Positions 8,079-33,052 of a stretch of DNA of 64,000 bases are shown piece by piece. The stretch lies in assembly GCA_965284365.1 (NCBI GenBank), contig OZ260079.1:456836-520835 (forward strand), in the 5' to 3' direction. The notes beneath the pieces are model-generated. The model was not told the DNA's origin. It did not search any database and saw nothing but the letters and a program-made list of their open reading frames with translations. Positions within the stretch are counted from its first letter, which is position 1; each line of letters begins with the position of its first letter. This DNA comes from Phragmitibacter sp. (GTDB taxonomy: Bacteria > Verrucomicrobiota > Verrucomicrobiia > Verrucomicrobiales > Verrucomicrobiaceae). Position numbers and translations under genes: made by a program.

Positions 8079-8117
8079 GACAAGGGTGCGACAACGATCA
8101 AGGCAAGTGCTTGAGCA

Positions 8118-13014: not shown

Positions 13015-16000
13015 CTATTTCGCCGCGTCGACTTGTTGAAGATGAGTCTCCAGATCTTTGACGACATTGAGCTTGCCCCACATGATGGCGAAGTGACCGG
13101 GGAAAGTGCAGACGTATTCGTGCTGGCCGGGTTCTGCGGGAGCGCGCAGTTGCAGGCGTTCGGTCTGGCCGGGCTCCAACATGTGGGTGAAGCCTTTCTT
13201 CCAGATGACTGGCATGTCCGGGATGTAGAGGTAGCCCCGGCGATCGGGCGTGGCGGTCATGGTCATGGCCTTGGTGCCGACGTCCATGTGCGAGGGGCCA
13301 TCAATAAAGACGAGGTTGTGCGGCATGATATCGTTGTTTTCGAAGATGATCTCGAATGGCTTCCCTGCTTCCACGGTGAGGTCGATGGTGTCGTAGCGCA
13401 TCTGTTCGCGCACGGTTTTGATGACAAACACACTGACGCCGAGGTCGCGGAGGCCTTTGCGAATCGCGGCACCTGCTTCACCGGGAACCAGCTTGCCGAG
13501 CTCCAGACCGAGCTGGGAAACTTCCACGTAGGCTTGTTTGGCACGCTGATTGGCGGGAACGGTCTTGGCAAAAGCGAGAATGCTATCTGCCAGCGGCAAA
13601 GCTTGCGCCTTGTCCCATGAGGAGGGCGGCAATTGCATGATGGCACGAGCGACAAGATCACGATATTGACCGGCGAGGAGTAGTTTGGAGAGGAGCTTGA
13701 AATTGGTGGTCGCGTGATCAAGGCCGGTCAGGGCCGCGGCGGCGATGACGGGTTTCATGACGATGGGTGGCAAATTACCCGTCAAGCCTTCCTCGACAAG
13801 CGGTTGGAACTTGGCGCGTAGTGCCGGGTCAGGGATCAAGGCGACGCTTTCCATGAGCACGCTGAGAGTTTCATGATTGTCCTTCCGTCCTTCCCAAGTC
13901 GGCTTGGGGTCACCACTCATGCGGACGAAAGCAGCCATACCGGCGATACGAGCGTCGCGCACGCCGTGATCTTTGGTGGCGATGCGTGTGACGCGATCCT
14001 GTGCGGCTTTCAAGGCCTTCGGATCGGAGCCGGCCAGCAATTTGCCGAGATCGGCATAGACTGGGGTTTGCACTTGCTGGTCATCCAGGCGGATGAGGGC
14101 TGCGACGAGTTCGGCTTCACGAGAGGTTTTGCGAAGCTTGGCGAGATCCGTGGCGGCGCTGTCTTTGGTGGCGGAATCCAGGCCTTTACGCTCGATCTGA
14201 GCGGCTAACACGGCTTCCTCGCGAGGAGCCAATTTCAGTTCGTCGTTGGTCATTTTATCCAACACATAAGCCAAGGCGGCGGGATTCGACTTGATGTCGA
14301 TCTCCTGCGGCGCGGGCTTCAGAGCGCGCATGGTTTCCCCAAGCGTGTAGTTGAGGTAGTAATCCATGGGGTGTTTCAGCACCTCCAGGGCGGCTTCCGC
14401 AGCGGCAACGCGATCTGACTTCACAAGCTCTGCGATCGCGGGCAGTGTGCCGTCCATGGAAGCGAAGAAGCTGCAAGCGCGCACGGCTTCAAGGCGCACG
14501 AGCGGGCTTTCGTCATTGGCGGCTTTCTTCAGAAGGCTCAGAGCTTCCGGGATTCGGTCGCGCCAGTAGCAGAGCACGCGCACACCGGCGGCACGAGCCT
14601 CTGGTGTTTGGGCAGTCAACTGCTCCTTCAGCCACGCGGGATTGACGAGGTTGAGATACTGCTGCAGCCAGAGAACCTCGGTGATGAAGTGTTCATTCTT
14701 GGCGACGTTGTCGCTGTCGTCGTAAGCTTTGGCGTCGAGGCTCTTGAGAATTTCTTCCGCAGAACGTTTGCTGAGTTCGAGCTTGGCACGTTCGCGGGTG
14801 CGGAATTCGGGAGCCTTGAGGAGACTGATGAGTTCGTGGACGGAGGCACCATCAATTTTAGCTGGCTTCACCAAGGGCTTCTCCGTATTCCAGACACGCC
14901 AGATGCGACCATACTTGTGGTCACGAAGGGGATCACGAATGCTGTACTGCATGTGGCCGATGAGGGCTTCCGCCCAGTCCACGAGGTAAAGCGAGCCATC
15001 GGGAGCAAATTCCATGTCCACAGGACGGAAGTTCGGATCGCTGCTCAGCACTAGAGGTTCGATCTCCTTGGCCTCGTAGCCGGAACCGACGGCTTTCACC
15101 CTGTGATTCAGGGTGCCCTGGACACCGATGCAATTGTTTAGCAGGAAGTTTCCCTGCATGTCATCCGGGAAGTTGCGGCTGCTGACGAATTCGCAGCCGC
15201 TTGTTGGGCGGACACGCTTCGTGAGAAAGGTCTGCATCGCGCTGTGTTTTTCCGGAAAGGGCAGATAACCGCTAAAGGCTGTCGCGAAGTAATTGCTGCC
15301 GCCGGAGGCATCCGCGATGAAGGTCTGCCCCCATTGGTCGAAGGCGATGCCATGTGGATTTGCGTAGTTGTAGCTGACGAAGACGCTTAGTTTGTTGCTG
15401 AGAGGTTCGTAACGATAGGTGCCGGCATTAACACAGCGAACGGGACCATAAGGCGTCTCGACCTGGGTATTGTGGAAGGTGCCTTCCTGGAAATAGAGGT
15501 CACCGCCAGGGCCTTTAGTAAAGGCATTGATGACGTGATGGCTGTCCGCGCTATCGAAGCCGCTCAGCACGACTTCCCTGTCATCCGCTTTGTCATCACT
15601 GTTCGTATCCCGCAGCCAGACCAGATCCCGCTGGCTGCTGACCAGAATGCCGTCCTTGTAGAACTCAAAGGAGATGGGCAGGTGCAGGTTGTCAGCGAAG
15701 GTCTTGCAGGTGTTCGCCTTGCCGTCGTTGTCGGTGTCTTCGAGGATGATGATCTTGTCCTCGAATTCATCTCCGGGGCGCCACTGAGGATAACTGGGCA
15801 TGGTGCAGACCCACAGGCGTCCTTTAGTATCGAACGCCATGGATGTGGCATTGGCGAGTTCCGGAAACTGTTCTTCGCTGGCGAAACACTCGACCTTGAA
15901 ACCCTTGGCCGTGGTGAGCGATTTCAGCGTGTCGGCGACACTGGGAATCAACGCGGAGCCGCCCTCCGAGTTCTTGCTGGACTGACCGCGTTGCCCGTCA

Positions 16001-17043
16001 TCGGTTTTGCGCTGATTCACGCCGAACGAAGTCTTCACTTCGAGGAAAGGGGGCACATCGGAGTCATCAATTTTGTCGGGGACTGTCTCGCCTTGAGCCA
16101 ATTTCCAGATGCGCGCATCGCGATTGGCCGTCATGACATCGAGCACTTCGCGCTCGCGCTGCATGACGTCGCGATTGGTTTGATCGCCATCGGCGAACTT
16201 CAGACCGCTGCGGCCACCATAGACATAGTAGCTGTCCACGATGCGGTAGCGATTATACCACTTCTGGTTCTTCGACTCGATCTCGGTGCGGAGTTGTTGC
16301 TCGTTCAGTGCACCCAATTGTTTGACACTCTCCTCCGCCTTCCAGCCGAAAAGCGCTGCTTCTAAAAGCTGTGCGACTGCTTGGTCCCCCTTTGCGGTGA
16401 CATGGATGCCATTAAAGGTGTAGCTCTTGAAATCGCGGTCTGCCCCTTCGTTGGTGAAGAGCTTTCGGGTCGGGTGGTAGATATCTGCGAACGCGACGCC
16501 ATGCTCTTCCGCCACTTCTTTCATGGCTGCCGTGTAAAGCACGAGGCGCTCATTGATAGCTTTACCGTCCGGCAGATTAGGATCACCGAGGTTCTCGGCA
16601 GCGATGGGAGAGACCAGCGCGATGCGGGGAGCGCCTTTGCCGCTGTAGTCCTGCTCCTTGGTGTGCTTGATCCACTCGGTAAGGTCGGCTTTGAACTTCT
16701 CCACACCCTGCGGCCCCTGGAAGGACTCGTTGAAGCCAAAAAAGGCGATCACCACGTCCGCTTTGCTGAAGGTCAGGTGCTCGTCCGGCGTGCCGAAGCC
16801 TTCCGCACGGGGGCGCAAGGCGACTTCGTCTGCGGACCATGAAAGATTGCGCACGACCAAATTGTGTTTGGGAAACCGCTGATACAGGAGTGTTTCCCAG
16901 TGGTTATGCCTCTCGAACTGCATGCGCTCGGCCAGTGTGTTTCCGATGAGACAGATGTGGTCGCCGGGACGAATTTCCAAGGGTGCGGCCGGGAGCCGGA
17001 CTAGGGCGAGGCCGAGAAACAGAAAAGGAAGCAGGCGTTTCAT
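13015..17043 (-). CDS. large secreted PVC-type protein with four regions: an SGNH-like domain, a glucose/sorbosone-dehydrogenase-like beta-propeller, HEAT repeats and a C-terminal cupredoxin
   Basis: Signal peptide 'MKRLLPFLFLGLALVRL'. N-terminus has 'GDHICLIGNT...FFGFNES...ADIYHP' (SGNH-like blocks, with Ser replaced by His in block I). Propeller 'WLRDTNSDDKADDREVV...GIAFDQWGQTFIADASGG'. Long alpha-helical repeats. The C-terminus has the type-1 copper ligands His, Cys, His and Met in 'PHNLVF...CTFPGHFAIMWGKLNVV'. Confidence 0.65.
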   Translation of the reverse strand: MKRLLPFLFLGLALVRLPAAPLEIRPGDHICLIGNTLAERMQFERHNHWETLLYQRFPKHNLVVRNLSWSADEVALRPRAEGFGTPDEHLTFSKADVVIAFFGFNESFQGPQGVEKFKADLTEWIKHTKEQDYSGKGAPRIALVSPIAAENLGDPNLPDGKAINERLVLYTAAMKEVAEEHGVAFADIYHPTRKLFTNEGADRDFKSYTFNGIHVTAKGDQAVAQLLEAALFGWKAEESVKQLGALNEQQLRTEIESKNQKWYNRYRIVDSYYVYGGRSGLKFADGDQTNRDVMQREREVLDVMTANRDARIWKLAQGETVPDKIDDSDVPPFLEVKTSFGVNQRKTDDGQRGQSSKNSEGGSALIPSVADTLKSLTTAKGFKVECFASEEQFPELANATSMAFDTKGRLWVCTMPSYPQWRPGDEFEDKIIILEDTDNDGKANTCKTFADNLHLPISFEFYKDGILVSSQRDLVWLRDTNSDDKADDREVVLSGFDSADSHHVINAFTKGPGGDLYFQEGTFHNTQVETPYGPVRCVNAGTYRYEPLSNKLSVFVSYNYANPHGIAFDQWGQTFIADASGGSNYFATAFSGYLPFPEKHSAMQTFLTKRVRPTSGCEFVSSRNFPDDMQGNFLLNNCIGVQGTLNHRVKAVGSGYEAKEIEPLVLSSDPNFRPVDMEFAPDGSLYLVDWAEALIGHMQYSIRDPLRDHKYGRIWRVWNTEKPLVKPAKIDGASVHELISLLKAPEFRTRERAKLELSKRSAEEILKSLDAKAYDDSDNVAKNEHFITEVLWLQQYLNLVNPAWLKEQLTAQTPEARAAGVRVLCYWRDRIPEALSLLKKAANDESPLVRLEAVRACSFFASMDGTLPAIAELVKSDRVAAAEAALEVLKHPMDYYLNYTLGETMRALKPAPQEIDIKSNPAALAYVLDKMTNDELKLAPREEAVLAAQIERKGLDSATKDSAATDLAKLRKTSREAELVAALIRLDDQQVQTPVYADLGKLLAGSDPKALKAAQDRVTRIATKDHGVRDARIAGMAAFVRMSGDPKPTWEGRKDNHETLSVLMESVALIPDPALRAKFQPLVEEGLTGNLPPIVMKPVIAAAALTGLDHATTNFKLLSKLLLAGQYRDLVARAIMQLPPSSWDKAQALPLADSILAFAKTVPANQRAKQAYVEVSQLGLELGKLVPGEAGAAIRKGLRDLGVSVFVIKTVREQMRYDTIDLTVEAGKPFEIIFENNDIMPHNLVFIDGPSHMDVGTKAMTMTATPDRRGYLYIPDMPVIWKKGFTHMLEPGQTERLQLRAPAEPGQHEYVCTFPGHFAIMWGKLNVVKDLETHLQQVDAAK

Positions 17044-17181: not shown

Positions 17182-18597
17182 ATGACGAAAGTAGGACTTG
17201 TTAGCCTTGGTTGCGCCAAAAACCTGATCGATTCCGAGATCATGGTCGGTCATTTGCAGCAGGCTGGCATGATCATGACACCCGAGCCGGAACTGGCTGA
17301 CGTGCTCATCATCAACACCTGCTCGTTCATCGACATGGCGAAGAAAGAGAGCATCTCGAGCGTGCACGATGCCGTTGATGGCCGCGCAGGCTCCAAAAAG
17401 CGGGCTAGGCAAAAGATCATTGTCGCGGGTTGCATGGCCCAGCGGTTTGCTCAGGAACTGCCTGGGTTGATGCCGGAAGTGGACGCTTTTATTGGGCTGG
17501 ATCAACTCACGAAGGTCGCCCCCATTATTGAAGGCCTAATGGGCCACAAGCGCGGGGTTGATGAAGAGCCAGAGAATCACGTCACGGAAAAGCCCAAGTA
17601 CATTCCGGACTACGACACTCCGCGCTTCCGGCTGACGCCGAACCATTACGCCTATATCAAGATCGCGGAAGGCTGCAATCACCCCTGTAGCTTCTGCATC
17701 ATCCCGAAAATTCGTGGGATGCACCGCTCACGCACGCAGGAAAGCGTGGTGCGCGAAGCCCGCGCGCTGGTCGCCAGCGGCGTAAAGGAGATCAATCTCA
17801 TCTCCCAAGACACGACCTATTTCGGCATGGACAAGTGGGAGGGATCCCGCCCGACGCCCCGCAGTGGTGTGGACAGCAGCCGTGGAGAAAGCCTTTCCAC
17901 ACTGATCCGCGCTCTACAGGAGATCGAGGGAGATTTCTGGATTCGTCTGCTTTACACCCACCCTGCCCACTGGAGCGATGAACTCATCCAGACGGTGGCA
18001 GAGTGCTCCAAGGTGGCCCGGTATGTGGACATCCCGCTCCAGCACGTGAGTGACAACATGCTCGGCCTGATGAAGCGGGAAACGAACGGCGCCTACATCC
18101 GGGATCTGATCAAGCGCATGCGCGCGGGCATTCCTGATCTGGCCATCCGCACGACGTTTATCGTAGGTTTCCCCGGTGAAACCGAGGCTGATTTCCAAGA
18201 ACTGCTCCAGTTCATGGATGAGACGAGATTCGAACGCGCCGGCGTGTTTAACTACTCCCGTGAGGAAGGCACGCGTGCCCACAAGATGGAGGGCCACATC
18301 CACCACGCCACCCGCCAGCGTCGTTGGAACCAAGCCATGCGTACATTGCAGATGCGGGCGGAAGAGTTCAATGCCTCCCAAGTGGGCCGCACCATGCGTG
18401 TGCTCGTGGAGCAGCCGGGGCAAGCCCGCAGTCACATGGATGCCCCGGAAATCGACGGCACTGTCTTCGTGGACGAGAGCCTGCCCGTCGGATCATTCGT
18501 GGAGGTCACGGTGAAGGATTGGCGCGGATATGATCTCGTCGCCACGGCTGAGAGCACCGATACGTTTCCCGTTCGTGAAGCAGCATTTCTACACTGA
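17182..18597 (+). CDS. rimO: ribosomal protein S12 methylthiotransferase
   Basis: 'MTKVGLVSLGCAKNLIDSE...LIINTCSFI' is an MTTase N-terminus. Radical-SAM 'EGCNHPCSFCIIP'. Has a C-terminal TRAM region. Start placed at the internal ATG 17182 by homology to RimO N-termini. Confidence 0.75.
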   Translation: MTKVGLVSLGCAKNLIDSEIMVGHLQQAGMIMTPEPELADVLIINTCSFIDMAKKESISSVHDAVDGRAGSKKRARQKIIVAGCMAQRFAQELPGLMPEVDAFIGLDQLTKVAPIIEGLMGHKRGVDEEPENHVTEKPKYIPDYDTPRFRLTPNHYAYIKIAEGCNHPCSFCIIPKIRGMHRSRTQESVVREARALVASGVKEINLISQDTTYFGMDKWEGSRPTPRSGVDSSRGESLSTLIRALQEIEGDFWIRLLYTHPAHWSDELIQTVAECSKVARYVDIPLQHVSDNMLGLMKRETNGAYIRDLIKRMRAGIPDLAIRTTFIVGFPGETEADFQELLQFMDETRFERAGVFNYSREEGTRAHKMEGHIHHATRQRRWNQAMRTLQMRAEEFNASQVGRTMRVLVEQPGQARSHMDAPEIDGTVFVDESLPVGSFVEVTVKDWRGYDLVATAESTDTFPVREAAFLH

Positions 18598-18612
18598 TCC
18601 CAAGTGATCGTG

Positions 18613-18879
18613 CTAGGCTTGACCGTTAGCCACGACGGCAGTTGCGATCGTTGAGACAGATTGCAGCACCTCCCGCGCGGTTTGCGCGTCCGGAATTTTG
18701 AGGCCGAACCGCTTTTCGAGGGCCACGGTCAGTTGCAGGGCATCCACACTATCCAATGCCAGACCGGTCGGACTGAAAAGGGCGGTATCGTCGCCGATTT
18801 CATCCGCTCCCTGGGGTAACATGAGCTCTTCCACCAGAGCCTGTTTCACCTGTTGTTTGATCGTTTCCAATTCAGCCAT
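18613..18879 (-). CDS. acyl carrier protein
   Basis: 88 aa. Phosphopantetheine-site-like 'GLALDSVDALQL'. Acidic helical protein. Confidence 0.7.
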   Translation of the reverse strand: MAELETIKQQVKQALVEELMLPQGADEIGDDTALFSPTGLALDSVDALQLTVALEKRFGLKIPDAQTAREVLQSVSTIATAVVANGQA

Positions 18880-18914
18880 TATCTATAAATCGTTCCAACT
18901 TATACGATTGGCGC

Positions 18915-19640
18915 TCAAAGGATGCCACCATCTATCTTAAGTATGGCTCCAGTGATATAGGACGCCTCCGGTGAAGCAAGGAAAAGCGCTGCTGCCGCCA
19001 CTTCTTCCGGCTTCCCCAGCCTCCGCATGGGGATCCGCATGGCGGCCTCGCGGAGTTGGCCCGCATCCATTTCGTTCAGTGCATCCGTGGCGATATATCC
19101 GGGGCAGAGGGCATTGACAGTGATGCCGGCTCTGGCCGTTTCCTTGGCGAAACTCTGGGTGAGCGCGACGAGCCCTGCCTTTGCCGCAGCGTAATTTGTC
19201 TGTCCGGCTGGGGCCAGCAGGGCGCTGAGAGACGCCACATTCAAGATGCGGCCGAAGCGCTGACCCATCATGACTTTCACCACGGCACGGCAGCCGAGGA
19301 ACGCTCCGGTCAGATTGCTTTGCAGCACCTCATGCCAAGCGACGTCACTCATGGTCGCGAGGAGCGAGTCATCATGGTGGCCGGCGTTGTTGATAAGCAC
19401 GTCCAGTCTTCCGCTTGCCGCGACGATGCACTGCACCGCGTCCTGCCACTGGGCATCCGAAGTGACATCGAGCTCGACGACATGACATCTTCCTGAAAAC
19501 TCGAGAGCAAGCTCATCAGCCCGAGTGCGGCCCTTCCTCACACCCAGCCAGACGTGCGCTTCCAAGTCTGCCTTTAGAAAACGGCGGCCAAAAGCAATAC
19601 CGAGACCGCCGTTCCCGCCGGTGATGAGGATGCTACGCAT
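18915..19640 (-). CDS. SDR-family 3-oxoacyl-ACP reductase-like ketoreductase
   Basis: 'ILITGGNGGLGIAF' Rossmann motif, 'LINNAG', and the catalytic 'S...YAAAKAG' triad region. Confidence 0.75.
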   Translation of the reverse strand: MRSILITGGNGGLGIAFGRRFLKADLEAHVWLGVRKGRTRADELALEFSGRCHVVELDVTSDAQWQDAVQCIVAASGRLDVLINNAGHHDDSLLATMSDVAWHEVLQSNLTGAFLGCRAVVKVMMGQRFGRILNVASLSALLAPAGQTNYAAAKAGLVALTQSFAKETARAGITVNALCPGYIATDALNEMDAGQLREAAMRIPMRRLGKPEEVAAAALFLASPEASYITGAILKIDGGIL

Positions 19641-19690
19641 GAGTTTTTTTCAGCCAGGAAGGGTGGCCGCGCCAGAAAGAATTGCCCGCC

Positions 19691-20731
19691 TCACAGTACG
19701 CGCGAAAAGACAGCGCCGAGCGCCTGCTGAGCCAGACCTATGGCGCTAACGTGAGCATTCTGAAGTCCGCTATTCCGCATCAGGGCTTCACAGGCCAGCA
19801 CCGTCTTCCAGCCTGCGGAGACACCAAAGCCCTCTCCGAGGACAGAATGCAGCCCGAGCCGACTGCCGGGCCAACCGGTCCAGGCAGCGCTCTCCGCGGC
19901 ATCCAGACGTGGGGAACCCCGCAGCCCATGGCACAATAGCGATCGCTCTGACTCCCATCCGGTGAGGTCGTGGTGCACGCGTTGGGCCGCTTCAGCCCGG
20001 CTGATACGATTTGTGTAAGCGTAAGGACCGGCAATGCGGTTCAAGCGGATGCCCGGGGCAGGTTCCCCTTTCTCCAAAAGCAACGCGGCTGCGCCTTCCC
20101 CGGCAACGCTGTTTTTCTGGAAGAGCATCATCGCCTCTTCTGTCATCCAGTCTGATTCTTCAGCTGCGATAACGAGGCACGCGGGCACGATGCCGTCTAT
20201 GAGCCATTGCATGGCCAAGTCCAAACCGCTGAGGAACTGTGAGTCGTCTCCCACCAAAGTCGCATTTACACCAGTGGAGCCGAGTTGCGCAGAGACATGG
20301 CTGGAGGGGGCATTGTATACGGTCTCGGGAAATAGAATAGGACTGGCGAGAGCTGGATCCGTAAGCACCTCTGCGAAGAAGCGGGTGCTGAATTGTACGC
20401 AACCACTCATGGCGCAAAAGATGACGCCCAAGTTCCACGAGCCGCCCCGGCTCGCCGCGAGCCGCTCTTCTCCCAGTGCGGTTGCAGCCGCATGGATGGA
20501 AAACCGCGATGCGGCTGAGGCACGTCTCAGCCTTGGATGTTTCATCCAGGCAGGAGCAGGGCCTTCCCACGCCGGCACATGCCGCAACTTTCGCCTGGGC
20601 GCATAATCTCCCCGGCTTGCTTCGGTGATGGGCAAGGGAGAGCCATCCTGGACGGCATCCCATAAGCCCGCCACGCTCCAGCCCGCAGGCGAAACCGCTC
20701 CCCACCCGGAAATTTTCAGAATCTGCTTCAT
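19691..20731 (-). CDS. beta-ketoacyl synthase-like protein lacking the active-site Cys (chain-length-factor-like ketosynthase partner)
   Basis: Ketosynthase N-terminal 'ISGWGAVSPAGW'. The position of the catalytic Cys reads 'TLVGDDSQFLSGL'. No His-His motifs are visible in the C-terminal half. Confidence 0.55.
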   Translation of the reverse strand: MKQILKISGWGAVSPAGWSVAGLWDAVQDGSPLPITEASRGDYAPRRKLRHVPAWEGPAPAWMKHPRLRRASAASRFSIHAAATALGEERLAASRGGSWNLGVIFCAMSGCVQFSTRFFAEVLTDPALASPILFPETVYNAPSSHVSAQLGSTGVNATLVGDDSQFLSGLDLAMQWLIDGIVPACLVIAAEESDWMTEEAMMLFQKNSVAGEGAAALLLEKGEPAPGIRLNRIAGPYAYTNRISRAEAAQRVHHDLTGWESERSLLCHGLRGSPRLDAAESAAWTGWPGSRLGLHSVLGEGFGVSAGWKTVLACEALMRNSGLQNAHVSAIGLAQQALGAVFSRVL

Positions 20732-20741
20732 GATCCTCTTT

Positions 20742-21995
20742 TCAAACGGCTCGCATCACCAACGTGGCATTCGAACCGCCGAAGCCAAATGAGTTGGTCA
20801 GCACGCAATCGAGTTTCCTTGCGCGAGGCTCACGCACAAAGTCGAAGGTGCAGACTGAGTCCGGCATTTCCACCATGGGCGTGGGCGGCACAAATCCCCC
20901 GTTCATGGCGAGCAAACAGATGACAGCCTCCACGGCTCCCGCACCACCCAGGAGGTGACCAATCGCTCCTTTCGTGCTGCTCACCATGATGTCCGGCGTG
21001 TGAAGGCCTGCCCATTCCTGAATGGCTCTTCCCTCAGCGATGTCATTCAGCGGCGTGCCGGTGCCGTGGGAGTTAATATACTGAACTGCATCCGGCGTGA
21101 TCTTCGCCTCTGCGCAAGCTTCTTGCATGCTTCTCAGTGCAGCTTTACCTTCAGGGTGGGGCTGAGTGAGATGATGCAGATCTGTGCTGGCGCCGTATCC
21201 CGTGACTTCAGCAAGAATTTCAGCACCGCGAGCTATGGCATCGTCTAGGCGTTCAAGCATGACAATCCCAGCGCCCTCACCCAAAGCCAAACCATCGCGG
21301 TTTGCATCGAACGGACGTGGACGATTGCTCAAGGCCTGGAGCGAGTCGAACCCCGCATAAACCATATGGGCGAGGGCATCATATCCACCAGCGATAGCCC
21401 GCCGAGCGCGGCCAGATTTGATCTGACGGAAAGCTTCGCCGATAGCATTCGCCCCGCTGGCGCAGGCATTTGTGATGATGGTTACCGGGCCATCCACTCC
21501 AAGTGCATCCGCAAGAAATCGGGCTTGGCTCGGCGGTTGGTAGGCGATGACTCTAGCGGCCAAGCCTGACTGCTTTCCCGGCGTGGCGACCTTTCGGCCG
21601 TAATACTCCTCGCCCAGGCTCATGCCCCCGGCACTGGTGCCAAGGAAGATGGGTATGCTTGCCTGTTCCAGCGTAGCGGGATTCCACCCGCACTGCTCCA
21701 TGGCCTCCAGGCCAGCGTAGAGAAGTAAGCGGGAGGGCCGGTCGAGACGGGACAGTTGCCGTTTGGTAAGGAGGTGCGTGGGGAGCGGCTGGTCGAAGAC
21801 AACTTCCCCACCTCGTTGCACGCGCTGCCGGGACGCATCGAAGACAGTGATGTCTCGCAAAGCGATGCGGCCCTCCCGAAACCCCGCGGCATTAGCGGCG
21901 CGGCCAATCCCCATGGACGTAATGATCCCGGCGCCCGTCACCGCCACGCGATGAGGGCCAGCACTGTCTGTGGGGTTGGGGTAGCCCATGGCCAC
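20742..21995 (-). CDS. beta-ketoacyl-ACP synthase (FabF/FabB-like ketosynthase)
   Basis: Active-site Cys 'IITNACASGANAIG'. His motifs 'INSHGTGTPLND' and 'STKGAIGHLLGGAG'. Confidence 0.8.
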   Translation of the reverse strand: MAMGYPNPTDSAGPHRVAVTGAGIITSMGIGRAANAAGFREGRIALRDITVFDASRQRVQRGGEVVFDQPLPTHLLTKRQLSRLDRPSRLLLYAGLEAMEQCGWNPATLEQASIPIFLGTSAGGMSLGEEYYGRKVATPGKQSGLAARVIAYQPPSQARFLADALGVDGPVTIITNACASGANAIGEAFRQIKSGRARRAIAGGYDALAHMVYAGFDSLQALSNRPRPFDANRDGLALGEGAGIVMLERLDDAIARGAEILAEVTGYGASTDLHHLTQPHPEGKAALRSMQEACAEAKITPDAVQYINSHGTGTPLNDIAEGRAIQEWAGLHTPDIMVSSTKGAIGHLLGGAGAVEAVICLLAMNGGFVPPTPMVEMPDSVCTFDFVREPRARKLDCVLTNSFGFGGSNATLVMRAV

Positions 21996-22062
21996 GAATA
22001 GAGGATCAATGCCCTACCCTCAAGCGAAAGCCGGTGGGGCGCTATGCGGCAGACATATTTGA

Positions 22063-23421
22063 ATGTATCATTGCGTCCTCCCGTCAGAAGAGATACCTCC
22101 CTTTGCCATGCTTTTCCGTCAGTGGTGTCAGATCCTACGAAGTCATCAAGCTCATGAGGCCGTGTATGATGCGGCCACTGGCGAGAGGGTGACTTTTGCT
22201 GATTTACAGAACGACCTGGACCGAGAACCGGGTCTCTCTGCTGGCGCCGTTCTGGCCCTGCCAATCTCGGTGGGAGCACGCGCTTTTCTAGTGCAAACGC
22301 TCCGGAGCTGGCGGGACGGCGCCGTGCTCTGCCCGGTGGAGGATGAAGTGCCCATGGAGCTTCCCGAAACAGGAGAGCTGCCCCCGGAAGTCTGTCACCT
22401 GAAATACACTTCCGGTACGACGGGTGAACCACGGTGGGTTATGTTCAACGAACATCAGCTCGCGGCAGATGCGCGGCAGATTCGGCACACGATGGGGCTG
22501 GATCGCGCATGCCCGAATCTTGCTGTGATCTCGCTGGCTCACAGCTACGGATTTTCGAATCTGGTTCTGCAATTGCTGCTGCACGGTCATCCCATGGTCA
22601 CGATGGCCGATGCTCTGCCAGGAACCCTGCGTATGGCTTTCACGCGGGATCATCGCTATACCCTCCCCGCTGTGCCGGCGATGTGGCGAGCCTGGCATCA
22701 GGTCGGCCTGCTCAAAGATGCGCCTATCGCATGCGCCATCACGGCAGGGGCGCCCATGCTCCTGGAATTGGAAATGCAGATTTTCCAGATGGATGGGCTC
22801 AAGGTGCACACCTTTTACGGGGCGAGCGAATGTGGCGGCATTGCCTATGACAGCTCGGACACGCCGCGTCAGGATGCCCATGTGATCGGGACGCCAGTGG
22901 AGCATGTCACTCTTTCACTGCATCGAAATGGTTGCGTGATAGTGGAGAGTCCCGCCGTGGCGCTTGGTTATTGGCCTGCGGCTTCTCTCGAGCAGGACAC
23001 GCTGAGTGTTGGGCGTTACCTGACGAGCGACCTTGGGCAGTTGCGGAGTGGCAAGATCAGTCTGCATGGACGCGCTTCCGATGCGATCAACATCGCGGGG
23101 CGCAAGCTGAATCCCAACGATGTGGAGTCGGCGCTGCTGACCTGCCCGGGAGTGCACCACTGTGTCGTCTTCGGCGCGCCCAGTCTGGATTCAGCACGTC
23201 ACGAAGACACGATTGCCTGTGTCAATGTCGCACCTGGGATCAAGACGAGTGACCTGAACCGGTGGCTCGGCGATCGCCTGCCTGCCTGGCAGCGGCCGCG
23301 TCACTACTGGCTCAATGAAGAACTACAGACCAACACTCGAGGCAAGACCCCTCGAAGCCATTGGCGGGCTCAATGGCTGCAGTTCTCCAAGGCTGCTCTC
23401 ATGGCCAACGAACTTCTATAG
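22063..23421 (+). CDS. AMP-dependent synthetase/ligase (adenylate-forming acyl-CoA/acyl-ACP ligase)
   Basis: AMP-binding motif 'YTSGTTGEPRW'. 'TFYGASECGGIA'. Divergent from the ketosynthase operon. The start codon is uncertain: 22063, or 22108 at 'MLFRQW'. Confidence 0.7.
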   Translation: MYHCVLPSEEIPPFAMLFRQWCQILRSHQAHEAVYDAATGERVTFADLQNDLDREPGLSAGAVLALPISVGARAFLVQTLRSWRDGAVLCPVEDEVPMELPETGELPPEVCHLKYTSGTTGEPRWVMFNEHQLAADARQIRHTMGLDRACPNLAVISLAHSYGFSNLVLQLLLHGHPMVTMADALPGTLRMAFTRDHRYTLPAVPAMWRAWHQVGLLKDAPIACAITAGAPMLLELEMQIFQMDGLKVHTFYGASECGGIAYDSSDTPRQDAHVIGTPVEHVTLSLHRNGCVIVESPAVALGYWPAASLEQDTLSVGRYLTSDLGQLRSGKISLHGRASDAINIAGRKLNPNDVESALLTCPGVHHCVVFGAPSLDSARHEDTIACVNVAPGIKTSDLNRWLGDRLPAWQRPRHYWLNEELQTNTRGKTPRSHWRAQWLQFSKAALMANELL

Positions 23422-23444
23422 CAGCGGCGGCGGCGAGTTGCCGC

Positions 23445-24344
23445 TTACGCTGGTTGTGCTCCACGTCGCAGAATGGACTTAGCGGCGGCTTGATTTGCGC
23501 GATGGATGGCTTCCGCCAGCGGGACATTCTTTGCGATGGCAGCGGCGAATACGCCGGCAAATGTGTCGCCCGCGCCTACGGTGTCGACGGGATTCACGGG
23601 TTGGGTTGCCACGGTTAGCATCGTGGGTTTATGGCCTTCGGCTTGCTTAGACAGGCAATGGACTGAGGCTGATCCGCGTGTGACGATCAGCGTGCCGATA
23701 GCCAGTTGCTTCATTCGTTTCCACCAAGGGGTGGGGTGCACGGCCAGAGTGGCTACACGATACCGGAAGATCGCCGCGGCTTCGCTTTCGTTGACCACCA
23801 GATAATCGACCCAGACTTCACCCCATTTGAATTCGGATGATATGGGAGACGGGTTCATCACCACGGCAACGCCTGCACGATTGGCCAACTGAAGCGCGGC
23901 CATCACACACGTCATGGGGGTCTCCCACTGGAGGAGCAAGACATCGGCGGACTCTATCAAGCGCCGATGCCGACGGACCCAAGCCGCGGTGAGTTTGCCG
24001 TTTGCCTCAGGGGCCACGATGATCTGATTCTCTCCAGAAGCTGCGACGCCGATGAGGGCGGTGCCTGTGAGGGCCTTGGGTGCAGTCATGATGCCGGAGT
24101 CATCGATGGCGAACTTTGTGAGGCGTGTGCGGTAGGCCGCGCCGTCGGCGTCAGCGCCGAGACATCCGATCATGCGAACTGTGGCACCAGCCCGGCTTGC
24201 GGCGATGGCCTGATTTGCCCCCTTCCCGCCAAATGCTTTGCGCAGTCTATGAGCTCGGACGGTCTCACCCGGCGAGGGAAGGTGTTTCGTCTCCCCCACC
24301 ATGTCGATATTCAGGGAGCCTACTACAGCGATGGAGGGTTTCAC
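23445..24344 (-). CDS. ribokinase / PfkB-family sugar kinase
   Basis: 'IAVVGSLNIDMV', 'GGKGANQAIAA', and the C-terminal 'DTVGAGDTFAGVFAAA' anion-hole motif. Confidence 0.75.
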   Translation of the reverse strand: MKPSIAVVGSLNIDMVGETKHLPSPGETVRAHRLRKAFGGKGANQAIAASRAGATVRMIGCLGADADGAAYRTRLTKFAIDDSGIMTAPKALTGTALIGVAASGENQIIVAPEANGKLTAAWVRRHRRLIESADVLLLQWETPMTCVMAALQLANRAGVAVVMNPSPISSEFKWGEVWVDYLVVNESEAAAIFRYRVATLAVHPTPWWKRMKQLAIGTLIVTRGSASVHCLSKQAEGHKPTMLTVATQPVNPVDTVGAGDTFAGVFAAAIAKNVPLAEAIHRANQAAAKSILRRGAQPA

Positions 24345-24363: not shown

Positions 24364-25203
24364 TTACACAGATTGTTTGGCCTGCATCCAAAGCCACACG
24401 AGGCCAGTGCCTCTGTGTTCTTCCGTGGCGAGCTTCAGTTCATCCTTCGAGATGGGTTCTTTTGAGTGGAGCGTATTGTTGGCTATCCACGTGTCACGGC
24501 TGAGCGCATCGATTCGCTCAATGTGATGAGTGGATTCAAATCGAGCTTTAAGGAGGTTTTCTACTTCGGTAGATGTGGGAGGTGCTTCGTGAACCTCGAC
24601 GAGTATGTCGTTGCGAATCAATGAAGGCGCCGCCTTTGGATCCAACAACTGGGCTTCAAAGCCTTCGATATCGCAAACCACCAGGGTTTTTCTGCCTGAG
24701 AGTTTATCCAGATCTGAATGGCTGCAGAACGAATTGATGTGGAGCCGATCTTCCACATTGTTCAATGCCGCCAAGCGCCGAACCTGTGAACGTGAGATAA
24801 AGTCTGTGTCGAAGGCGAAGACGTTTGCACCGGGGATGGCGACCGCCAATCCAACTGCGTAATAACCTTCGGCGCAACCGACGTCGATTATCACGGAGTA
24901 AGCGCGTTGGACGATGTGATTTACCACCGGATGGAGCTCAGCTTCATAGGAGCCAAGCCACTTTGGCGTGATGGAACCCCAGACCGTTTCATTAATATAG
25001 CGGAGGTCTTTGAAAGGGCCTGACTGGACCTGAATGGCGTCATTGCTTCCGAAGAGCTTTGTGCGGAATGCTGACTGATAGTCAAAAAACATCCGGCGGA
25101 AGTGGCGCCGGTTCCGCATGGCTCGAACTGCGTCGAAGAGCGCGGGGAACCGCTGACTAAGGAAAGATTTTAGAAAGGCCTTCACGAGAGGTCGCACGAG
25201 CAA
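24364..25203 (-). CDS. FkbM-family SAM-dependent methyltransferase
   Basis: 'VIIDVGCAEGYYAVGLA...NVFAFD' SAM-binding fold. Length is typical of Methyltransf_21. Confidence 0.65.
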   Translation of the reverse strand: MLVRPLVKAFLKSFLSQRFPALFDAVRAMRNRRHFRRMFFDYQSAFRTKLFGSNDAIQVQSGPFKDLRYINETVWGSITPKWLGSYEAELHPVVNHIVQRAYSVIIDVGCAEGYYAVGLAVAIPGANVFAFDTDFISRSQVRRLAALNNVEDRLHINSFCSHSDLDKLSGRKTLVVCDIEGFEAQLLDPKAAPSLIRNDILVEVHEAPPTSTEVENLLKARFESTHHIERIDALSRDTWIANNTLHSKEPISKDELKLATEEHRGTGLVWLWMQAKQSV

Positions 25204-25264: not shown

Positions 25265-28200
25265 TTAACTCTCATTTTCATCGCCTTGCTCCACCTGACT
25301 ACGCACGGCTACGGGTTGGCTGCCGTCGGGGGCGCGTTCTACGGGTTGCACGCGGATCTCTACATCCACGGGAACGGCGCGAAGGCCTTCGATGATCTTT
25401 TGAAGCTGCGCCATGGTCGCATCCGTCAGTGTGGCCGGTTGTGCAAATGCGGTAAGCGAGTTCTGAATGCCTTCCAGGCCTGCGGTGAAGGCGCTCAAGT
25501 GGCCGGAGATTCGGCTGACGGGATCGTTCTCGCCCGCACCGCCAGTCAAGAGATTGCGTTTGAAGGTTCGTTTGATTTCATCCCAACGCGCGAGGTCTGC
25601 CGGAGAAGCAAAACCATTGATCTCTCGCCACTTCAGCAGGTTGGCCTCTGCGGCCTGACTGAGCGTCTGCGCTTCGCCGCGATAGTGGTCTTCGATCAAG
25701 CTTTTTACTTCATCGTCTGACATGAGCGGGAGGATCTTCTCCGCGATCTTGTTCATGTTCCGGTAGGAACCCTGGAGCTTGAAGGGTGGTTCGGTCCGGT
25801 AGGCATCTTCCATGGCGGCGCTGCGGATGTACTCCTGATTCACGCGCAACATCACCTGCCGCACGGTCAACAACTTTTCCATGACACGAACGCACTCCTC
25901 GATCTCCTCAGCGCTGTAATTGCCTTCGAACTCGATGTCCTCGCGATTTCCTGTAAGCGCGATCTTAAGGATGGCCAAGGCGTCGGCATGACTACGGGCG
26001 GCCACGCGAGCCAGGGTAGTATTGCTGGTCAATGCATTCTCGATGTAGCTGTCTTTAAAGGCGGCCTCATGATTCCCCAGGATGTCCCCAAGATTATAGG
26101 TGTCCGCGCGGTTCGCGAGCATATCCGGCACCTGAAACTTTCCGCCGACCTCCGTATATGGATTGCCTGCCATGACCACGGCCACCTTCCGGCCGCGCAG
26201 GTCATACGTTTGGGCTTTCCCACGGAACACGCCCTCGATTTTGCGTGAGCCGTCGCACAGCGAAATGAATTTCTGAAGAAACTCCGGGTTGGTATGCTGG
26301 ATGTCATCCACGTAGATCATGACATTGTCGCCCATGGCAAATGCCAAGTTCAGCCGCTCCACTTCTTCCCGGGCACTGGCGTTAGATGCTTCCGCTGGAT
26401 CGAGGGAAGTAACCTTGTGACCAAGCGCCGGACCGTTGATTTTTACTAAAGTAATCCCGAGGCGGTTCGCGACGTATTCCATCAGGGTGGTTTTGCCGTA
26501 GCCGGGCGGAGAGATGAGCAACAGCATGCCCATCCGGTCCGTGCGGGTAGCGCTGCCTGCCGCACCGATTTGCTTGGCGAGATTCGCGCCGATGAGCGGC
26601 AGATAGACTTGATCGAGCAAGCGGTTCCGAACGAAGGAACTCAGCACGTTGGCCTTGAAAGTATCCAGCCGCAGGGTTTCGCGACGCGTTTGGATGAGTT
26701 CGTGTTTGCGGCGCTGGAATTCCGCAAAGGCAGGCGCTGTCTCCGTGCAATAGCGCGTGAGGCGCGAGGAGAATTCATGGTAGTCGACTGACATCACCCC
26801 GCCCTGTTCAATATGCGGGTGTGATCCTGTCAGTCCGGTAATCTGAACTTTTGCGGTGGGCTCCGGAGGCAATGCCTGCGGGGGCTCGTCTTTGATCATT
26901 AGTAAGGCTGCGGCCTCCCATTTAACGAAGGTGTTCGCTTCCGGACAAAGAGCCGAAAGCCACTCCAAGGTTAACTCCCAATGCGTGTTGGGCTGATCAC
27001 GCAAGGAATCCAGCATCTCTGCAAAGGCGGTTCCTGCACGTTTCGCAGTCAGCAGTTTCCGGAAGGTGTGCACCAAATCCACAGCAGCATTGGAACGGGT
27101 AAGCGGCAGTTGGGGGTGTTTGGTGGTGAGGGCTTTCAGTTCGTCCACCAAGCAGGCTGCAGCCGCCGGGATGTCTGTTCCTAATGGCATACCGTGCTCC
27201 GTCATGTGCTTGGTGAGCACTGAGAGCGCGTCCACATCGGATGTCTTTCCACCCACGTGCTCTTCCATGCGTCCGCGGGCCTTCATTCGGCTGGCGAAGG
27301 CGTCTTTGTCCTGACCTCCGGGCCATGCATGCCAGAACCAGAGGGCGGCGCCACGGGCTTGAGGGCCATGCCTCAGCAATCCGAGGTCGCGCTGCATTTC
27401 CAGCAGGGGTGTGAGGATCAAAGTGGCATCGTGATCATGGACGCCCTTCGTGTAGCCTTCGTGATAACGCTGACTCATGAAGGCCTGCACCTGGGCTAAT
27501 CTCTCCTCAGGTGACGCTTTGAGATAAGCGCTAACGCCCGTGCCGGATTGGGAATGGAGCGCCATCATCATTTGCCAGGCCAAGTATTCACCGCGGTAAA
27601 CTTCTTCATTCTCCGCGATGACACTTTGTTCCCAGACTGCCCGCAATGAGGTCAGCGTGGGATCCTCAACTGACTCGAAGTACTGAGTGCCGGTGAGATG
27701 ATAGCAAAGCCCGCCCTCCCTTAGGAGGATCGTAAGTTCCAGCGGGAGCCGGTTCACGGTGAAGCGGTGCTTTCCGAGCTGGATAAGATCGCCCTCTACG
27801 AAAAGTTCGGATTTGTCCCGAATCTGCTTGAGCGAATCCTGCTGTAGCGTCTTCAGCTTCGTGGCGAGGTCGTCCGCCTGCACTTGGCCGCCGATCGCGC
27901 GCAATTGTTCAATGAGATCCCGCAGCTTTGCGACCATGACATCGCTGGCGATCCAGGAATGCACTTCCTCCGGTTTGGCGAAGCTCGCCAACCGGCTGCG
28001 CACGCTTGTCAGGATACGCTCTGCGGATTGCGTCAGACTTTGCGCGCGCCGGTTCCTCGCATCGACCAAGGATTGCCGCCGTGCCTCGAAGGCGCTTTGC
28101 ACTTCTTCCCGCTTACTGGTGAGTTCCTCTGCGTATTCGTCGAAGTCAGCAAAGCGGCCTTCGAGTTCTTCGATTTGAACCAGCACTCGTGTCAGCGACT

Positions 28201-30961: not shown

Positions 30962-33052
30962 TCACTTCTTTTTACCACCCCCTAAAATTGTGGAGGCATT
31001 TTCCTCCGTCAGTCCGAACCGCCCCGCAGCACCGATGAGACCAGTGAGTTTGTTCACGGTGGCACCATCCGGTTGCAGGCCCATCATCTTCATGAACAGC
31101 GCAGAGAGGGTCAGGTTCTTCGTGTCCTCGGCCGTGAGGCCGAATTGATCAATCAATGTCTTCAATTGGCTTTTGAAATACTCTGGGTCGCCGTTGAAGA
31201 AGGTTTCCTTCACATCGGTCAGGGTGCGGCTGCCTTCCACCAACCGATCCACTGCACGCGCGTTGCCGATGGCATTGGTAATCTTGTCAAAGAACTGGCT
31301 TTCGCCGCCCACGATTTCGATCTTGGCACTCTTCATGGCTTCCCCCAGCACCACAGCTTGTTGTGCTGCGATTTCGCCCTGAATGTTGATCTGAGCCAAC
31401 TCCACGGCCTTGTCCTTTTCGAGGTTGAGTTTGAACTCTTCGTGCTGACGACCGGCGTCCTCCAGTAGTTTCATGGCTTGAGCTTTCTTGGTGATGCCGT
31501 CCGCTTCTGCCGCCAGCTTGAGCTGCGCTACTTCCGCGTCCACTTGACCTACTTTCTGCGCCGCATCGGCCTTGGCCATCTGCACCTGCGCCTCGCCCAA
31601 GCCAGGCGCTGCCTCTCTGGCAGTAGTCGCTTCCGCCAGCAGTTTTTCCGCTTTGGCTTCCATCGCGGCGGATTCCTGTCGGGCCTCCGCCAGCGTGAGT
31701 ATTTCCTGAGCTTTCATCTGCGCTGCTTCGCGTGAAGCTTCGGCCGCTTTCACTGCCTGGAACGCGTCTTGCTCCGCTTTCAATTGTGAGGCCTGTTTCA
31801 CGCCCTCGGCTTCCTTAATCTTCTGGATCAAGAGCTCCTGCGCCGACTTTTCGGCCAGCGTCATTGCGACTGACTTCTGACGTTCCGCGCCAGCGAAGGC
31901 TTCGGTGTCCTTGATCTTCTCCTGCTCGATGACCACAGTCTTCTCCACCATGACGCGATCCTTGATCACGTCCTGGATGGCTTTCTTCTCGATTTCCACG
32001 GCCTTTTCTTTCTCGATCGACTTGAGCGTGGTGATGCGCTCCCGCTCGATGATCTCGAGTTCCTTGTCCCGAGTCACACGCTCCACTTCCACGGCGTCCG
32101 TGCGCTCCTTGTTCCTTTGCGCCACCAGCACCTGCCGATCCTTGTTCTCTGTGGCGATCGCGATTTCTTCGTCAGCGGCGATGCGGGCGCGCTCTGCCTT
32201 GAGGCGCTCTTCTTCCTGCACCTTCATGGTCTCGGCTTCTTCGCGAGCTTTGACGCTTTCGATGTCGCGCCTTTGCTTCGCTTCTGTCTCAGCAAGCTGG
32301 CGCTCCAATTCCAGGATGGCTTCACGTGCCTGCACGTCCTGTTGCTTGATAACCTTTTCCTTGTCGCGCTGGATGTTGTTGGCCAGTTTCGCCTGAGTGG
32401 CGGTCAATTCAGTGATCTTCTTGATGCCTTCCGCATCAAGGATGTTGTCCGGATCAAGGTTCTCCAGTTGCGTCTGTTCGAGGTAATCGATGGCGCAGTC
32501 ATCCAAAACGAATCCGTTCAGATCGGTGCCGATCACCTGCAGGATCTCATCTTTGAAATGGTCACGCTCGTTGTAGAGATCCACGAACTGAAAGCGCTTA
32601 CCCACCGTCTTCAAAGCTTCGGAGAACTTCGCATCGAAAAGCACGCGGATCATGTCTGTGCTGGAGGCTCGTTCGCAGCCGATGGACTGAGCGACACGCA
32701 GCACATCCTGGTCGGATTTGTTTACGCGCACGAAGAACGCCACCTTGATATCAGCGCGCATGTTGTCCTTGCAGATCAGACCTTCATTTCCCTGCCGCGC
32801 GATTTCAATCCGCTTCACAGAGATGTCCATGTATTCAATCTGCTGCACCACCGGCAGTACCAGGATGCCATTAAAGGATACTCGCGTGCCGCCTACGCCA
32901 TTGCGGACGACAGCTTGGCCTTGGTGCACTTTCCGGTAAAACCGGGATACAAGCACCAATATCCCCAACAGGATAATGATCCCAACCGTCATGCCGACGA
33001 AGATGGTTGGGGCAACAATGTCTAACAGCATCGGATTCATCTTAGGCGTCAA
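30962..33052 (-). CDS. flotillin-like SPFH/band-7 protein (YqiK/FloA-like)
   Basis: N-terminal transmembrane segment. SPFH core 'VRNGVGGTRVSFNGILVLPVVQQIEYMDISVKRIEI'. Long E/A/K-rich coiled coil. 696 aa. Confidence 0.75.
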   Translation of the reverse strand: MTPKMNPMLLDIVAPTIFVGMTVGIIILLGILVLVSRFYRKVHQGQAVVRNGVGGTRVSFNGILVLPVVQQIEYMDISVKRIEIARQGNEGLICKDNMRADIKVAFFVRVNKSDQDVLRVAQSIGCERASSTDMIRVLFDAKFSEALKTVGKRFQFVDLYNERDHFKDEILQVIGTDLNGFVLDDCAIDYLEQTQLENLDPDNILDAEGIKKITELTATQAKLANNIQRDKEKVIKQQDVQAREAILELERQLAETEAKQRRDIESVKAREEAETMKVQEEERLKAERARIAADEEIAIATENKDRQVLVAQRNKERTDAVEVERVTRDKELEIIERERITTLKSIEKEKAVEIEKKAIQDVIKDRVMVEKTVVIEQEKIKDTEAFAGAERQKSVAMTLAEKSAQELLIQKIKEAEGVKQASQLKAEQDAFQAVKAAEASREAAQMKAQEILTLAEARQESAAMEAKAEKLLAEATTAREAAPGLGEAQVQMAKADAAQKVGQVDAEVAQLKLAAEADGITKKAQAMKLLEDAGRQHEEFKLNLEKDKAVELAQINIQGEIAAQQAVVLGEAMKSAKIEIVGGESQFFDKITNAIGNARAVDRLVEGSRTLTDVKETFFNGDPEYFKSQLKTLIDQFGLTAEDTKNLTLSALFMKMMGLQPDGATVNKLTGLIGAAGRFGLTEENASTILGGGKKK

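Follow-up and report, generated by a model that had tools for sequence, protein, structure and literature searches.

A ketosynthase and its Cys-less partner in Verrucomicrobiota: a conserved pair that is probably the core of a specialised acyl-chain elongation module

Pairs formed by an active ketosynthase (KS) and a Cys-less partner, or chain-length factor (CLF), are known from several systems that build acyl chains. In the highly reducing type II polyketide synthases (PKSs) for ishigamide (Iga11-Iga12, PDB entries 6kxd and 6kxe) and of Photorhabdus (AntD-AntE, 6smo), an active KS and a short Cys-less partner stand beside a discrete ketoreductase (KR) and acyl carrier protein (ACP). The aryl-polyene cluster, as found in E. 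coli CFT073 (ApeC/D/E/F/H/I/J/K/O/P/Q/R; our locus L085), has an adenylating enzyme, a KS, a KS partner, a FabG-like KR and small ACPs, and ApeH is a precedent for starter loading. In the cispentacin machinery, the adenylate-forming AmcH loads 2-oxoglutarate onto the ACP AmcB and a heterodimer of the KS AmcF and its motif-less partner AmcG extends it; a four-gene amcH/B/F/G 'minimal type' biosynthetic gene cluster also exists (PMC10698177). Anammox bacteria have a KS/CLF-like heterodimer, FabF2/FabFmut, in a context resembling fatty-acid synthesis (FAS), and this pair has been called the first chain-length factor in a fatty-acid pathway (bioRxiv 10.64898/2026.05.19.726425). Here, we describe a five-gene cassette from the verrucomicrobium Phragmitibacter sp., which lies in a stretch of 64,000 nucleotides (GenBank assembly GCA_965284365.1, contig OZ260079.1, positions 456,836 to 520,835) that we refer to as the window. 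Four co-directional minus-strand genes encode a FabF-like KS, a Cys-less partner, a FabG-like KR of the short-chain dehydrogenase/reductase (SDR) superfamily and an ACP, and a short adenylate-forming ligase is transcribed divergently from them. All five open reading frames (ORFs) were recovered exactly where a preliminary description of this DNA had placed them. A Cys-His-His KS, a conserved Cys-less paralogue with the thiolase fold and a dedicated ACP are all present, and in this general sense the cassette is very probably a specialised KS/CLF module. A literature search found no paper characterising the family.

The Cys-less partner and its family

Alignment of the partner with FabF and ApeO places Asp163, the second D of 'GDDSQF' (residues 161-166), in the column of the catalytic Cys, which agrees with the reading made at the outset. 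The accompanying claim that the His motifs are absent holds in part: the second catalytic His is gone, as is the catalytic Lys, but H268 fills the first catalytic-His column. This histidine is not conserved, since relatives have Asp, Asn or Ser in that column. In an alignment of 23 relatives, 44-54% identical to the window protein, Cys is found at the catalytic position in none (0/23); the column holds D, S, P or G and occasionally Q, whilst G161 and D162 are invariant, as part of 49 invariant columns in total. On these sequences the missing Cys is a family trait and not the sequencing error that had been named as an alternative. The partner is ~70 residues shorter than a KS, by way of five deletions, and the AlphaFold2 (AF2) model built from the 23-sequence alignment nevertheless has a complete thiolase fold, with a predicted local distance difference test score (pLDDT) of 88 and a predicted template-modelling score (pTM) of 0.90. 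Phylum-wide conservation, 49 invariant positions and a confidently predicted fold are incompatible with gene decay.

The homology search with the partner returned 983 homologues, the best 120 of which all have E<1e-79. The named sources among these 120 are Verrucomicrobiota (Roseimicrobium, Phragmitibacter, Verrucomicrobium, and metagenome-assembled genomes (MAGs) of Verrucomicrobiales and Verrucomicrobiae), and even the nearest relatives share merely 52-54% identity with the window protein. A profile search of 1.8 billion cluster representatives gave 404 partner clusters (50% identity) at E<1e-30, and a scan with one genome per species found relatives in at least 571 species genomes, nearly all labelled Verrucomicrobiota and including Verrucomicrobiales, Limisphaerales, Akkermansiaceae and Luteolibacter. 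Automated annotation calls these proteins 'hypothetical', 'KS N-terminal-like' or 'chain length factor'. A tblastn search of plasmids with the CLF recovered no more than four remote CLF-like genes from Streptomyces, which sit in ACP-KS-CLF contexts.

Linkage was counted over 82 distinct related loci, with the KR, ACP and ligase counted over those loci that have enough flank. The KS lies directly upstream of the CLF in 82/82, often with a 4-bp overlap. Orthologues of the other three genes recur beside the pair in varying arrangements: the KR is adjacent in 39/66 loci, the ACP (53-73% identity) is downstream of the CLF in 35/60, and the ligase (40-57% identity) is divergently adjacent in 22/63 and within 9 kb in 23/44. 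In four single-chain proteins of 734-781 aa (P0133, P0147, P0222 and P0229) an N-terminal KS is followed by a C-terminal Cys-less partner; over 400 residues, P0133 matches the window KS at 61% identity and P0147 at 56%. From the adjacency in all loci, the 4-bp overlaps and the fusions P0133 and P0147 we infer that the KS and its partner probably form a heterodimer. Only L006 and L007, the nearest relatives, share the flanking RimO and ribokinase genes; other loci have different flanks. As judged from sequence, the KS-CLF core pair is a Verrucomicrobiota-wide family of its own.

The KS itself has Cys178, His310, Lys342 and His347, and in the alignment with FabF and ApeO its Cys178, His310 and His347 occupy the catalytic columns, as expected of the active FabF-like enzyme first proposed. 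Its best matches among PDB sequences are the FabFs of Thermus (283 bits) and Synechocystis (278 bits), then 9s5h_B (247 bits), followed by the actinorhodin KS (216 bits), E. coli FabF (204 bits), FabB (~185 bits) and Iga11 (174 bits). For the partner profile, the best PDB match is 9s5h_C (E 1.3e-12), over the N-terminal half only; this is amxFabFmut of Brocadia fulgida, whose N-terminal sequence is identical to Broful02170 (preprint Supplementary Fig. S1). Iga12 (6kxd_B) is matched over its full length at E 7e-8 and AntE (6smo_C) at 3e-7. In the structural comparison, Foldseek ranked AntE (6smo) and Iga12 (6kxe_B) at the top for the partner model, with template-modelling (TM) scores of 0.75-0.77 by either normalisation, ahead of FabFs, at a CLF sequence identity to the structural matches of ~17-18%.

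We also built a rough neighbour-joining tree (Kimura distances, 404 columns, 100 bootstraps), whose references are partly transcriptions by optical character recognition (OCR) of a preprint supplementary figure (bioRxiv 10.64898/2026.05.19.726425), with E. coli CFT073 ApeO and ApeR, Streptomyces plasmid KS and CLF sequences and a verrucomicrobial FabF added; the few taxa and long-branch effects limit its reading. The cassette KSs form a clade with 100% support that lies outside the canonical FabF clade (84%, with the verrucomicrobial FabF inside it); their sister group is ApeO and ApeR (82%). For the partners, too, support for a clade is 100%; Iga12 and the Streptomyces CLF are its neighbours (94%), whereas amxFabFmut and the actinorhodin CLF fall elsewhere. 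In this rough tree the Cys-less proteins do not cluster with FabF; clustering there had been named at the outset as refuting the original reading.

The cassette proteins also stand apart from housekeeping FAS by score. The KS reaches 357 bits on the FabF model TIGR03150 (cut-off 494), the KR 239 bits on the FabG model TIGR01830 (cut-off 298) and the ACP 28 bits on the AcpP model TIGR00517 (cut-off 70), and identities to housekeeping proteins are 37% for the KS (verrucomicrobial FabF), 41% for the KR (verrucomicrobial FabG) and 30% for the ACP. One relative, L002, carries a canonical set in which FabF (632 bits), AcpP (121 bits) and FabG (338 bits) each exceed their cut-off, 8 kb from its own cassette, whose KS scores 359 bits on the FabF model (cut-off 494). 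As far as this relative shows, the cassette is, by its sequences, distinct from housekeeping FAS and is not an organism's sole fabF-fabG-acpP set. The architecture of KS/CLF, KR, ACP and adenylating ligase, set apart from housekeeping fabF in the preliminary description, is thus borne out by the sub-cut-off scores and the true set in L002.

A candidate elongation scheme

We lean towards the view that the cassette encodes a dedicated, FabF-derived type II FAS/PKS-like elongation module, specific to Verrucomicrobiota, which works beside housekeeping FAS; for the scheme as a whole our confidence is moderate. By analogy with the described systems, the short adenylate-forming enzyme would activate a carboxylic-acid starter and transfer it to the dedicated ACP. 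All of its motifs A3, A5, A7, A8 and A10 were found, with the P-loop 'YTSGTTGEPR' and Lys428 as the A10 lysine. Its translation probably begins at Met16 (22108) rather than at 22063, giving 437 aa, because homologues of ~425 aa, aligning from Met16, cover 94% of the ORF. The KS, through Cys178-His310-His347, and the Cys-less partner would then act as an obligate heterodimer. The partner would most likely shape the acyl pocket and so govern chain length or substrate choice; a part in chain initiation is not expected, because its Cys position is variable and offers neither a conserved nucleophile nor a decarboxylating Gln. The KS-CLF pair would condense the starter with malonyl-ACP, charged by housekeeping FabD, and the FabG-like KR, in which TGxxxGxG, Ser137 and Tyr150-x3-Lys154 are present, would reduce the beta-keto group to give a 3-hydroxyacyl-ACP. 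The assignments of an SDR ketoreductase and a dedicated ACP have held, with the expected domains and motifs in both proteins. Because the window links no dehydratase, enoyl reductase or thioesterase to the cassette, and none recurs in the 82 related loci, a 3-hydroxyacyl (or oligo-hydroxy) chain might be handed over at this point, or the cycles might be completed in trans by housekeeping FabZ and FabI.

Several observations weigh against this scheme. The lack of a linked dehydratase, enoyl reductase or thioesterase in the window leaves the chemistry ambiguous. The fold of the ligase does not single out a substrate: the AF2 model (pLDDT 90) has oxalate, malonate, o-succinylbenzoate, benzoate and FadD13-type ligases as its nearest folds, a set that gives no preference among fatty, aryl and dicarboxylic acids. 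No curated NCBIfam cut-off is reached by this enzyme, and its top PDB sequence match, by a slight margin over other matches, is Cfl, which we take to be coronafacate ligase. It could instead act downstream, for instance in amide or ester formation, and among loci with sufficient flanking sequence roughly half lack a linked copy. Nor are the five genes kept together everywhere: Akkermansiaceae-type loci have no adjacent KR and ACP. Finally, the KS-CLF fusions could in principle be gene-calling read-throughs of the 4-bp overlap.

In other lineages, ApeJ-like family 2 glycosyltransferases (GT2s), ApeD-like acyltransferases, flavin adenine dinucleotide (FAD) enzymes and radical S-adenosylmethionine (radical-SAM) enzymes adjoin the core, and these neighbours suggest that the chain ends on an envelope lipid.

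Gene neighbourhood in the window and in relatives

The features of the cassette are collected in Table 1. The four minus-strand genes are spaced by 35, 50 and 10 nt. A promoter and terminator consensus scan of 18300-23700 gave nothing exceeding shuffled expectation, and the divergent intergenic region had no sigma-70 consensus match. Scanning the whole window at Rfam gathering thresholds returned zero RNA families, and therefore no riboswitch in the divergent region.

Table 1. Coordinates, strand and domain content of the cassette features (positions in the window)
Feature	Position	Strand	Length	Domains and residues
ACP	18613-18879	-	88 aa	PF00550 E 2.7e-8; phosphopantetheine-attachment Ser44 in 'LDSVDA'
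FabG-like SDR ketoreductase (KR)	18915-19640	-	241 aa	adh_short_C2 E 1.1e-56
Cys-less KS partner (CLF-like)	19691-20731	-	346 aa	PF00109 E 1.7e-6, N-terminal half only
FabF-like KS	20742-21995	-	417 aa	PF00109 E 1.2e-34 and PF02801 E 5.6e-33
Short ANL-superfamily adenylate-forming ligase	22063-23421	+	452 aa (ORF)	PF00501 E 1e-20 and PF13193 E 4.4e-8
Divergent intergenic region, KS operon/ligase	21996-22107		~112 nt	Presumed shared promoter, from the gene arrangement only

Within ~15 kb the window neighbours are a Mur ligase, YceI, a GDSL/DUF7133/cupredoxin protein, an FkbM-like methyltransferase, a DUF3686-AAA protein and penicillin-binding proteins, that is, unrelated housekeeping or uncharacterised genes. 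When all E. coli Ape proteins were searched against the 64-kb window by tblastn, no dehydratase, thioesterase, ApeJ-like GT2 or ApeD-like acyltransferase was found, and the original statement that the window shows no dehydratase or thioesterase stands. No hot-dog dehydratase or thioesterase is recurrent in the 82 related loci.

Some of these neighbours deserve description in their own right. Two genes from the cassette, 13015-17043 (-) encodes a 1342-aa secreted protein with a GDSL-like lipase domain, DUF7133, HEAT repeats and a C-terminal cupredoxin domain, and in L002 a gene of similar Pfam architecture (GDSL-like lipase, DUF7133, faint cytochrome c; 5163-8630) lies directly upstream of the KS. 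GDSL/DUF7133-type proteins have many paralogues in genomes of the Planctomycetes-Verrucomicrobia-Chlamydiae (PVC) superphylum, and the presence of one near the cassette in both places, a likeness by Pfam architecture, may be coincidental. In the gap between the ribokinase and DUF3686 genes, 24364-25203 (-) encodes a weakly FkbM-family or class I methyltransferase-like protein of 279 aa, which is not linked to the cassette in relatives. The 1697-aa product of 25265-30358 (-) contains DUF3686 ('ATPase involved in DNA repair', E 7e-172) and DUF7902 and ends in an AAA domain; after its gene come two co-directional ones, 30962-33052 (-) and 33049-33756 (-), for proteins of 696 and 235 aa without a Pfam family, and a PADLOC scan of these three genes found no defence family. 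Further away, a very long ORF of 2093 aa spans 52536-58817 (-).

In relatives, several accessory genes stand beside the core, all of them absent from the window. A polyprenyl-phosphate-type GT2, up to 42% identical to ApeJ, occurs in 19-21 loci, a FAD enzyme resembling Trp-halogenases or GG-reductases in 19, a CrtI-like oxidoreductase in 7 and an ApeD-like acyltransferase in 3; some relatives have a second, full-length acyl-CoA-ligase-like gene. B12-binding radical-SAM proteins are found in 7-8 loci and are not TIGR04072 orthologues, because they score 69-94 bits against a cut-off of 360. The ApeJ-like GT2 and ApeD-like acyltransferase lie by the ligase-KS-CLF genes in a few Verrucomicrobiaceae and Luteolibacter MAGs (L072, 238-2836; L076, ~620-2580; L029, 6305-7048). 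The GT2 and acyltransferase neighbours hint at a lipid anchor to which the acyl chain is joined. Behind the ligase of L072, co-directional genes for products of 1021, 308, 114 and 119 aa were considered and set aside as non-conserved or spurious-looking.

Two further arrangements were seen. In nine loci (L055, at 7725-8765, and L011, L014, L016, L046, L050, L051, L067 and L068) a HydE/PylB/BioB-like radical-SAM gene lies directly upstream of the KS, with a HydE model score of 163 bits (cut-off 255), often together with the GT2 and a conserved protein of 269 aa without a family match (for example L050, 1318-2127). In L073 (2305-17254), and also in L064, L069, L056, L036 and L078, all Verrucomicrobiae MAGs, the KS-CLF-KR genes sit inside a larger locus that adds a second full-length acyl-CoA-ligase-like gene, a FAD enzyme resembling Trp-halogenases or GG-reductases, a WG-repeat protein, a GT2, a B12-binding radical-SAM protein, a CrtI-like enzyme and a phosphodiesterase-like protein; the ACP follows 6-7 kb downstream, and the resemblance to anammox Cluster I is superficial.

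Taken much further, the KS-CLF pair could be the core of an undescribed, Verrucomicrobiota-wide envelope-lipid pathway, in which a FAS-derived, CLF-gated module builds a (hydroxy)acyl chain that some lineages would process through B12- or HydE-type radical-SAM proteins, a CrtI-like desaturase, FAD enzymes and the polyprenyl-phosphate-type GT2. We regard this broad reading as a long shot. If it were true, it would offer a culturable and possibly genetically tractable parallel to anammox Cluster I, which is itself not open to genetics, and it would explain the 'ladderane' and 'arylpolyene' calls of genome mining, which have been noted without explanation in Verrucomicrobia (PMC7298704, PMC8692599, PMC7343977). 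Soil, freshwater and guts are rich in Verrucomicrobiota, whose specialised lipids are almost unexplored. Apart from the broad reading, the family would be a second and far more widespread FAS-derived KS/CLF system in the PVC superphylum, after the anammox pair, in hosts that can be grown. Knowing its starter and product would clarify the role of CLFs beyond polyketide antibiotics, and might reveal a phylum-specific membrane component.

Comparison with described systems

By its partner, the cassette comes close to the highly reducing type II PKSs. The TM score of 0.75 in Foldseek, the full-length profile match at E 7e-8 and the 94% grouping in the rough tree all mark an Iga12-like short CLF, and the active KS, the discrete KR and the ACP are shared as well. 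Unlike the ishigamide-type systems, the cassette has no dedicated dehydratase, either within itself, in the 64-kb window or recurrently in related loci; its KS does not group with Iga11 in the rough tree; it has its own short adenylating enzyme; and it is confined to Verrucomicrobiota, where its conservation is that of a core function and not that of a sporadic biosynthetic gene cluster. Two other candidates were rejected. A classical aromatic type II PKS (KSalpha/KSbeta) does not fit, as the Gln at the CLF Cys position is not conserved and actB groups elsewhere; cyclases and aromatases were found neither among the annotated neighbours (~15 kb) nor among recurrent neighbours in the 82 loci. 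An ornithine-lipid lead came from the ACP, which scores only 40 bits on NF052616 'ACP_for_OlsHI' (cut-off 130), and was dropped because the OlsHI pathway, with a GH3-like OlsH and an alpha/beta-hydrolase, has no KS (PMC12493201).

The fullest parallel in parts is with the aryl-polyene cluster, where ApeH, also 452 aa, and ApeO, ApeC, ApeQ and ApeE correspond to the ligase, KS, CLF, KR and ACP. The cassette might then belong to a pigment pathway, either a reduced form of the aryl-polyene type or another highly reducing type II PKS, that makes a polyene chain with an unlinked dehydratase, and this is consistent with the KSs being sister to ApeO and ApeR and the CLFs joining Iga12, a polyene-type CLF, in the rough tree, with the ApeJ-like GT2 and ApeD-like acyltransferase adjoining the core in some relatives, and with the best NCBIfam matches of the ACP, PRK07081 and PRK09184, both sub-threshold, which we take to be aryl-polyene-type ACP models. 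We nevertheless judge it rather unlikely. The partner shows no relationship to ApeC (BLASTP E 1.9; hhalign probability 0.3%; 17.8 bits on PF13723, cut-off 25), the KS reaches 281 bits on PRK09185 (cut-off 407), and the identities of the KS to ApeR and ApeO (32-34%), of the KR to ApeQ (33%) and of the ligase to ApeH (23%) are lower than or similar to those with housekeeping FabF and FabG. By sequence comparison, then, the cassette is not orthologous to the aryl-polyene cluster and its CLF is unrelated to ApeC. It also lacks the ApeI and ApeP dehydratases, the ApeK thioesterase, the LolA/MMPL genes and the methyltransferase; the window holds no other hot-dog dehydratase, and the 82 related loci give one weak ApeI and one weak ApeK match. 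For LolA and MMPL, none was seen among the annotated (~15 kb) or recurrent neighbours, no tblastn search having been aimed at them. The tree that favours this pigment pathway is, moreover, built on few taxa and partly OCR-transcribed references. A cispentacin- or coronafacic-like minimal system, in which a dicarboxylic or keto acid would be loaded and elongated once, with or without cyclisation, to a small molecule, shares the amcH/B/F/G architecture of adenylating enzyme, ACP, KS and Cys-less partner (PMC10698177). The oxalate, malonate and o-succinylbenzoate ligases among the nearest ligase folds would suit such a starter, and the ACP has a weak match to AmcB (38 bits, cut-off 80). The AmcF model (cut-off 325), however, gives the KS just 191 bits where a housekeeping FabF reaches 205; the only NCBIfam matches of the CLF are FabF models, with no AmcG similarity detected; the cassette adds a KR that the Amc minimal set does not have; and what adjoins the core in relatives (GT2, acyltransferase and FAD enzymes) speaks for lipid chemistry. 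A small-molecule product of this kind seems to us improbable.

The anammox pair amxFabF2/amxFabFmut (9s5h) likewise combines a FabF-derived KS with a dead FabF-like partner and its own ACP within the PVC superphylum, and is the best PDB match of the CLF profile and a match of the KS (247 bits). With the B12-binding radical-SAM protein and CrtI-like desaturase placed beside KS-CLF-KR in L073, L064, L069, L036, L056 and L078, and with antiSMASH 'ladderane' calls reportedly common in Verrucomicrobia (PMC7298704, PMC8692599), one could see here a verrucomicrobial counterpart of the ladderane-associated anammox Cluster I, making an unusual fatty acid modified by a radical-SAM enzyme. We hold this to be very unlikely, given that amxFabFmut is a full-length (412 aa), FabF-like protein with Cys replaced by Val or Thr that groups apart from the verrucomicrobial CLFs in the rough tree, that its match spans the N-terminal half only, and that the KS scores ordinary FabFs (283 bits) above amxFabF2. 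Cluster I has FabZ, a B12-binding radical-SAM protein and a phytoene-desaturase homologue, whereas the window has no FabZ, no CrtI-like gene and no radical-SAM protein other than RimO, and the B12-binding proteins of relatives fall far below the TIGR04072 cut-off. Housekeeping type II FAS resembles the cassette in the superfamily and evident ancestry of its KS, KR and ACP. All four proteins of the minus-strand set fall within the FabF, FabG and ACP superfamilies and the flanks (RimO, ribokinase, Mur ligase) are housekeeping genes, so that the cassette might be the sole housekeeping fabF-fabG-acpP set with the Cys-less gene as a decaying duplicate. To this idea we give almost no credence: every score lies below its curated equivalog cut-off, L002 has a true FabF, AcpP and FabG in addition, the FabF clade of the rough tree, which takes in a verrucomicrobial FabF, leaves out the cassette KSs, and the Cys-less protein is conserved across the phylum with 49 invariant positions and a confident fold. 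The cassette, for its part, includes a Cys-less partner and a putative loader, and FabD, FabH, FabZ and FabI are all missing from it.

To conclude, the dedicated elongation module that we favour has its nearest functional analogue, as far as the proposed mechanism goes, in the cispentacin and coronafacic-acid Amc machinery. We do not file the cassette with the highly reducing PKS, aryl-polyene, cispentacin or anammox systems, because each of the four has at least one defining feature that the cassette fails.

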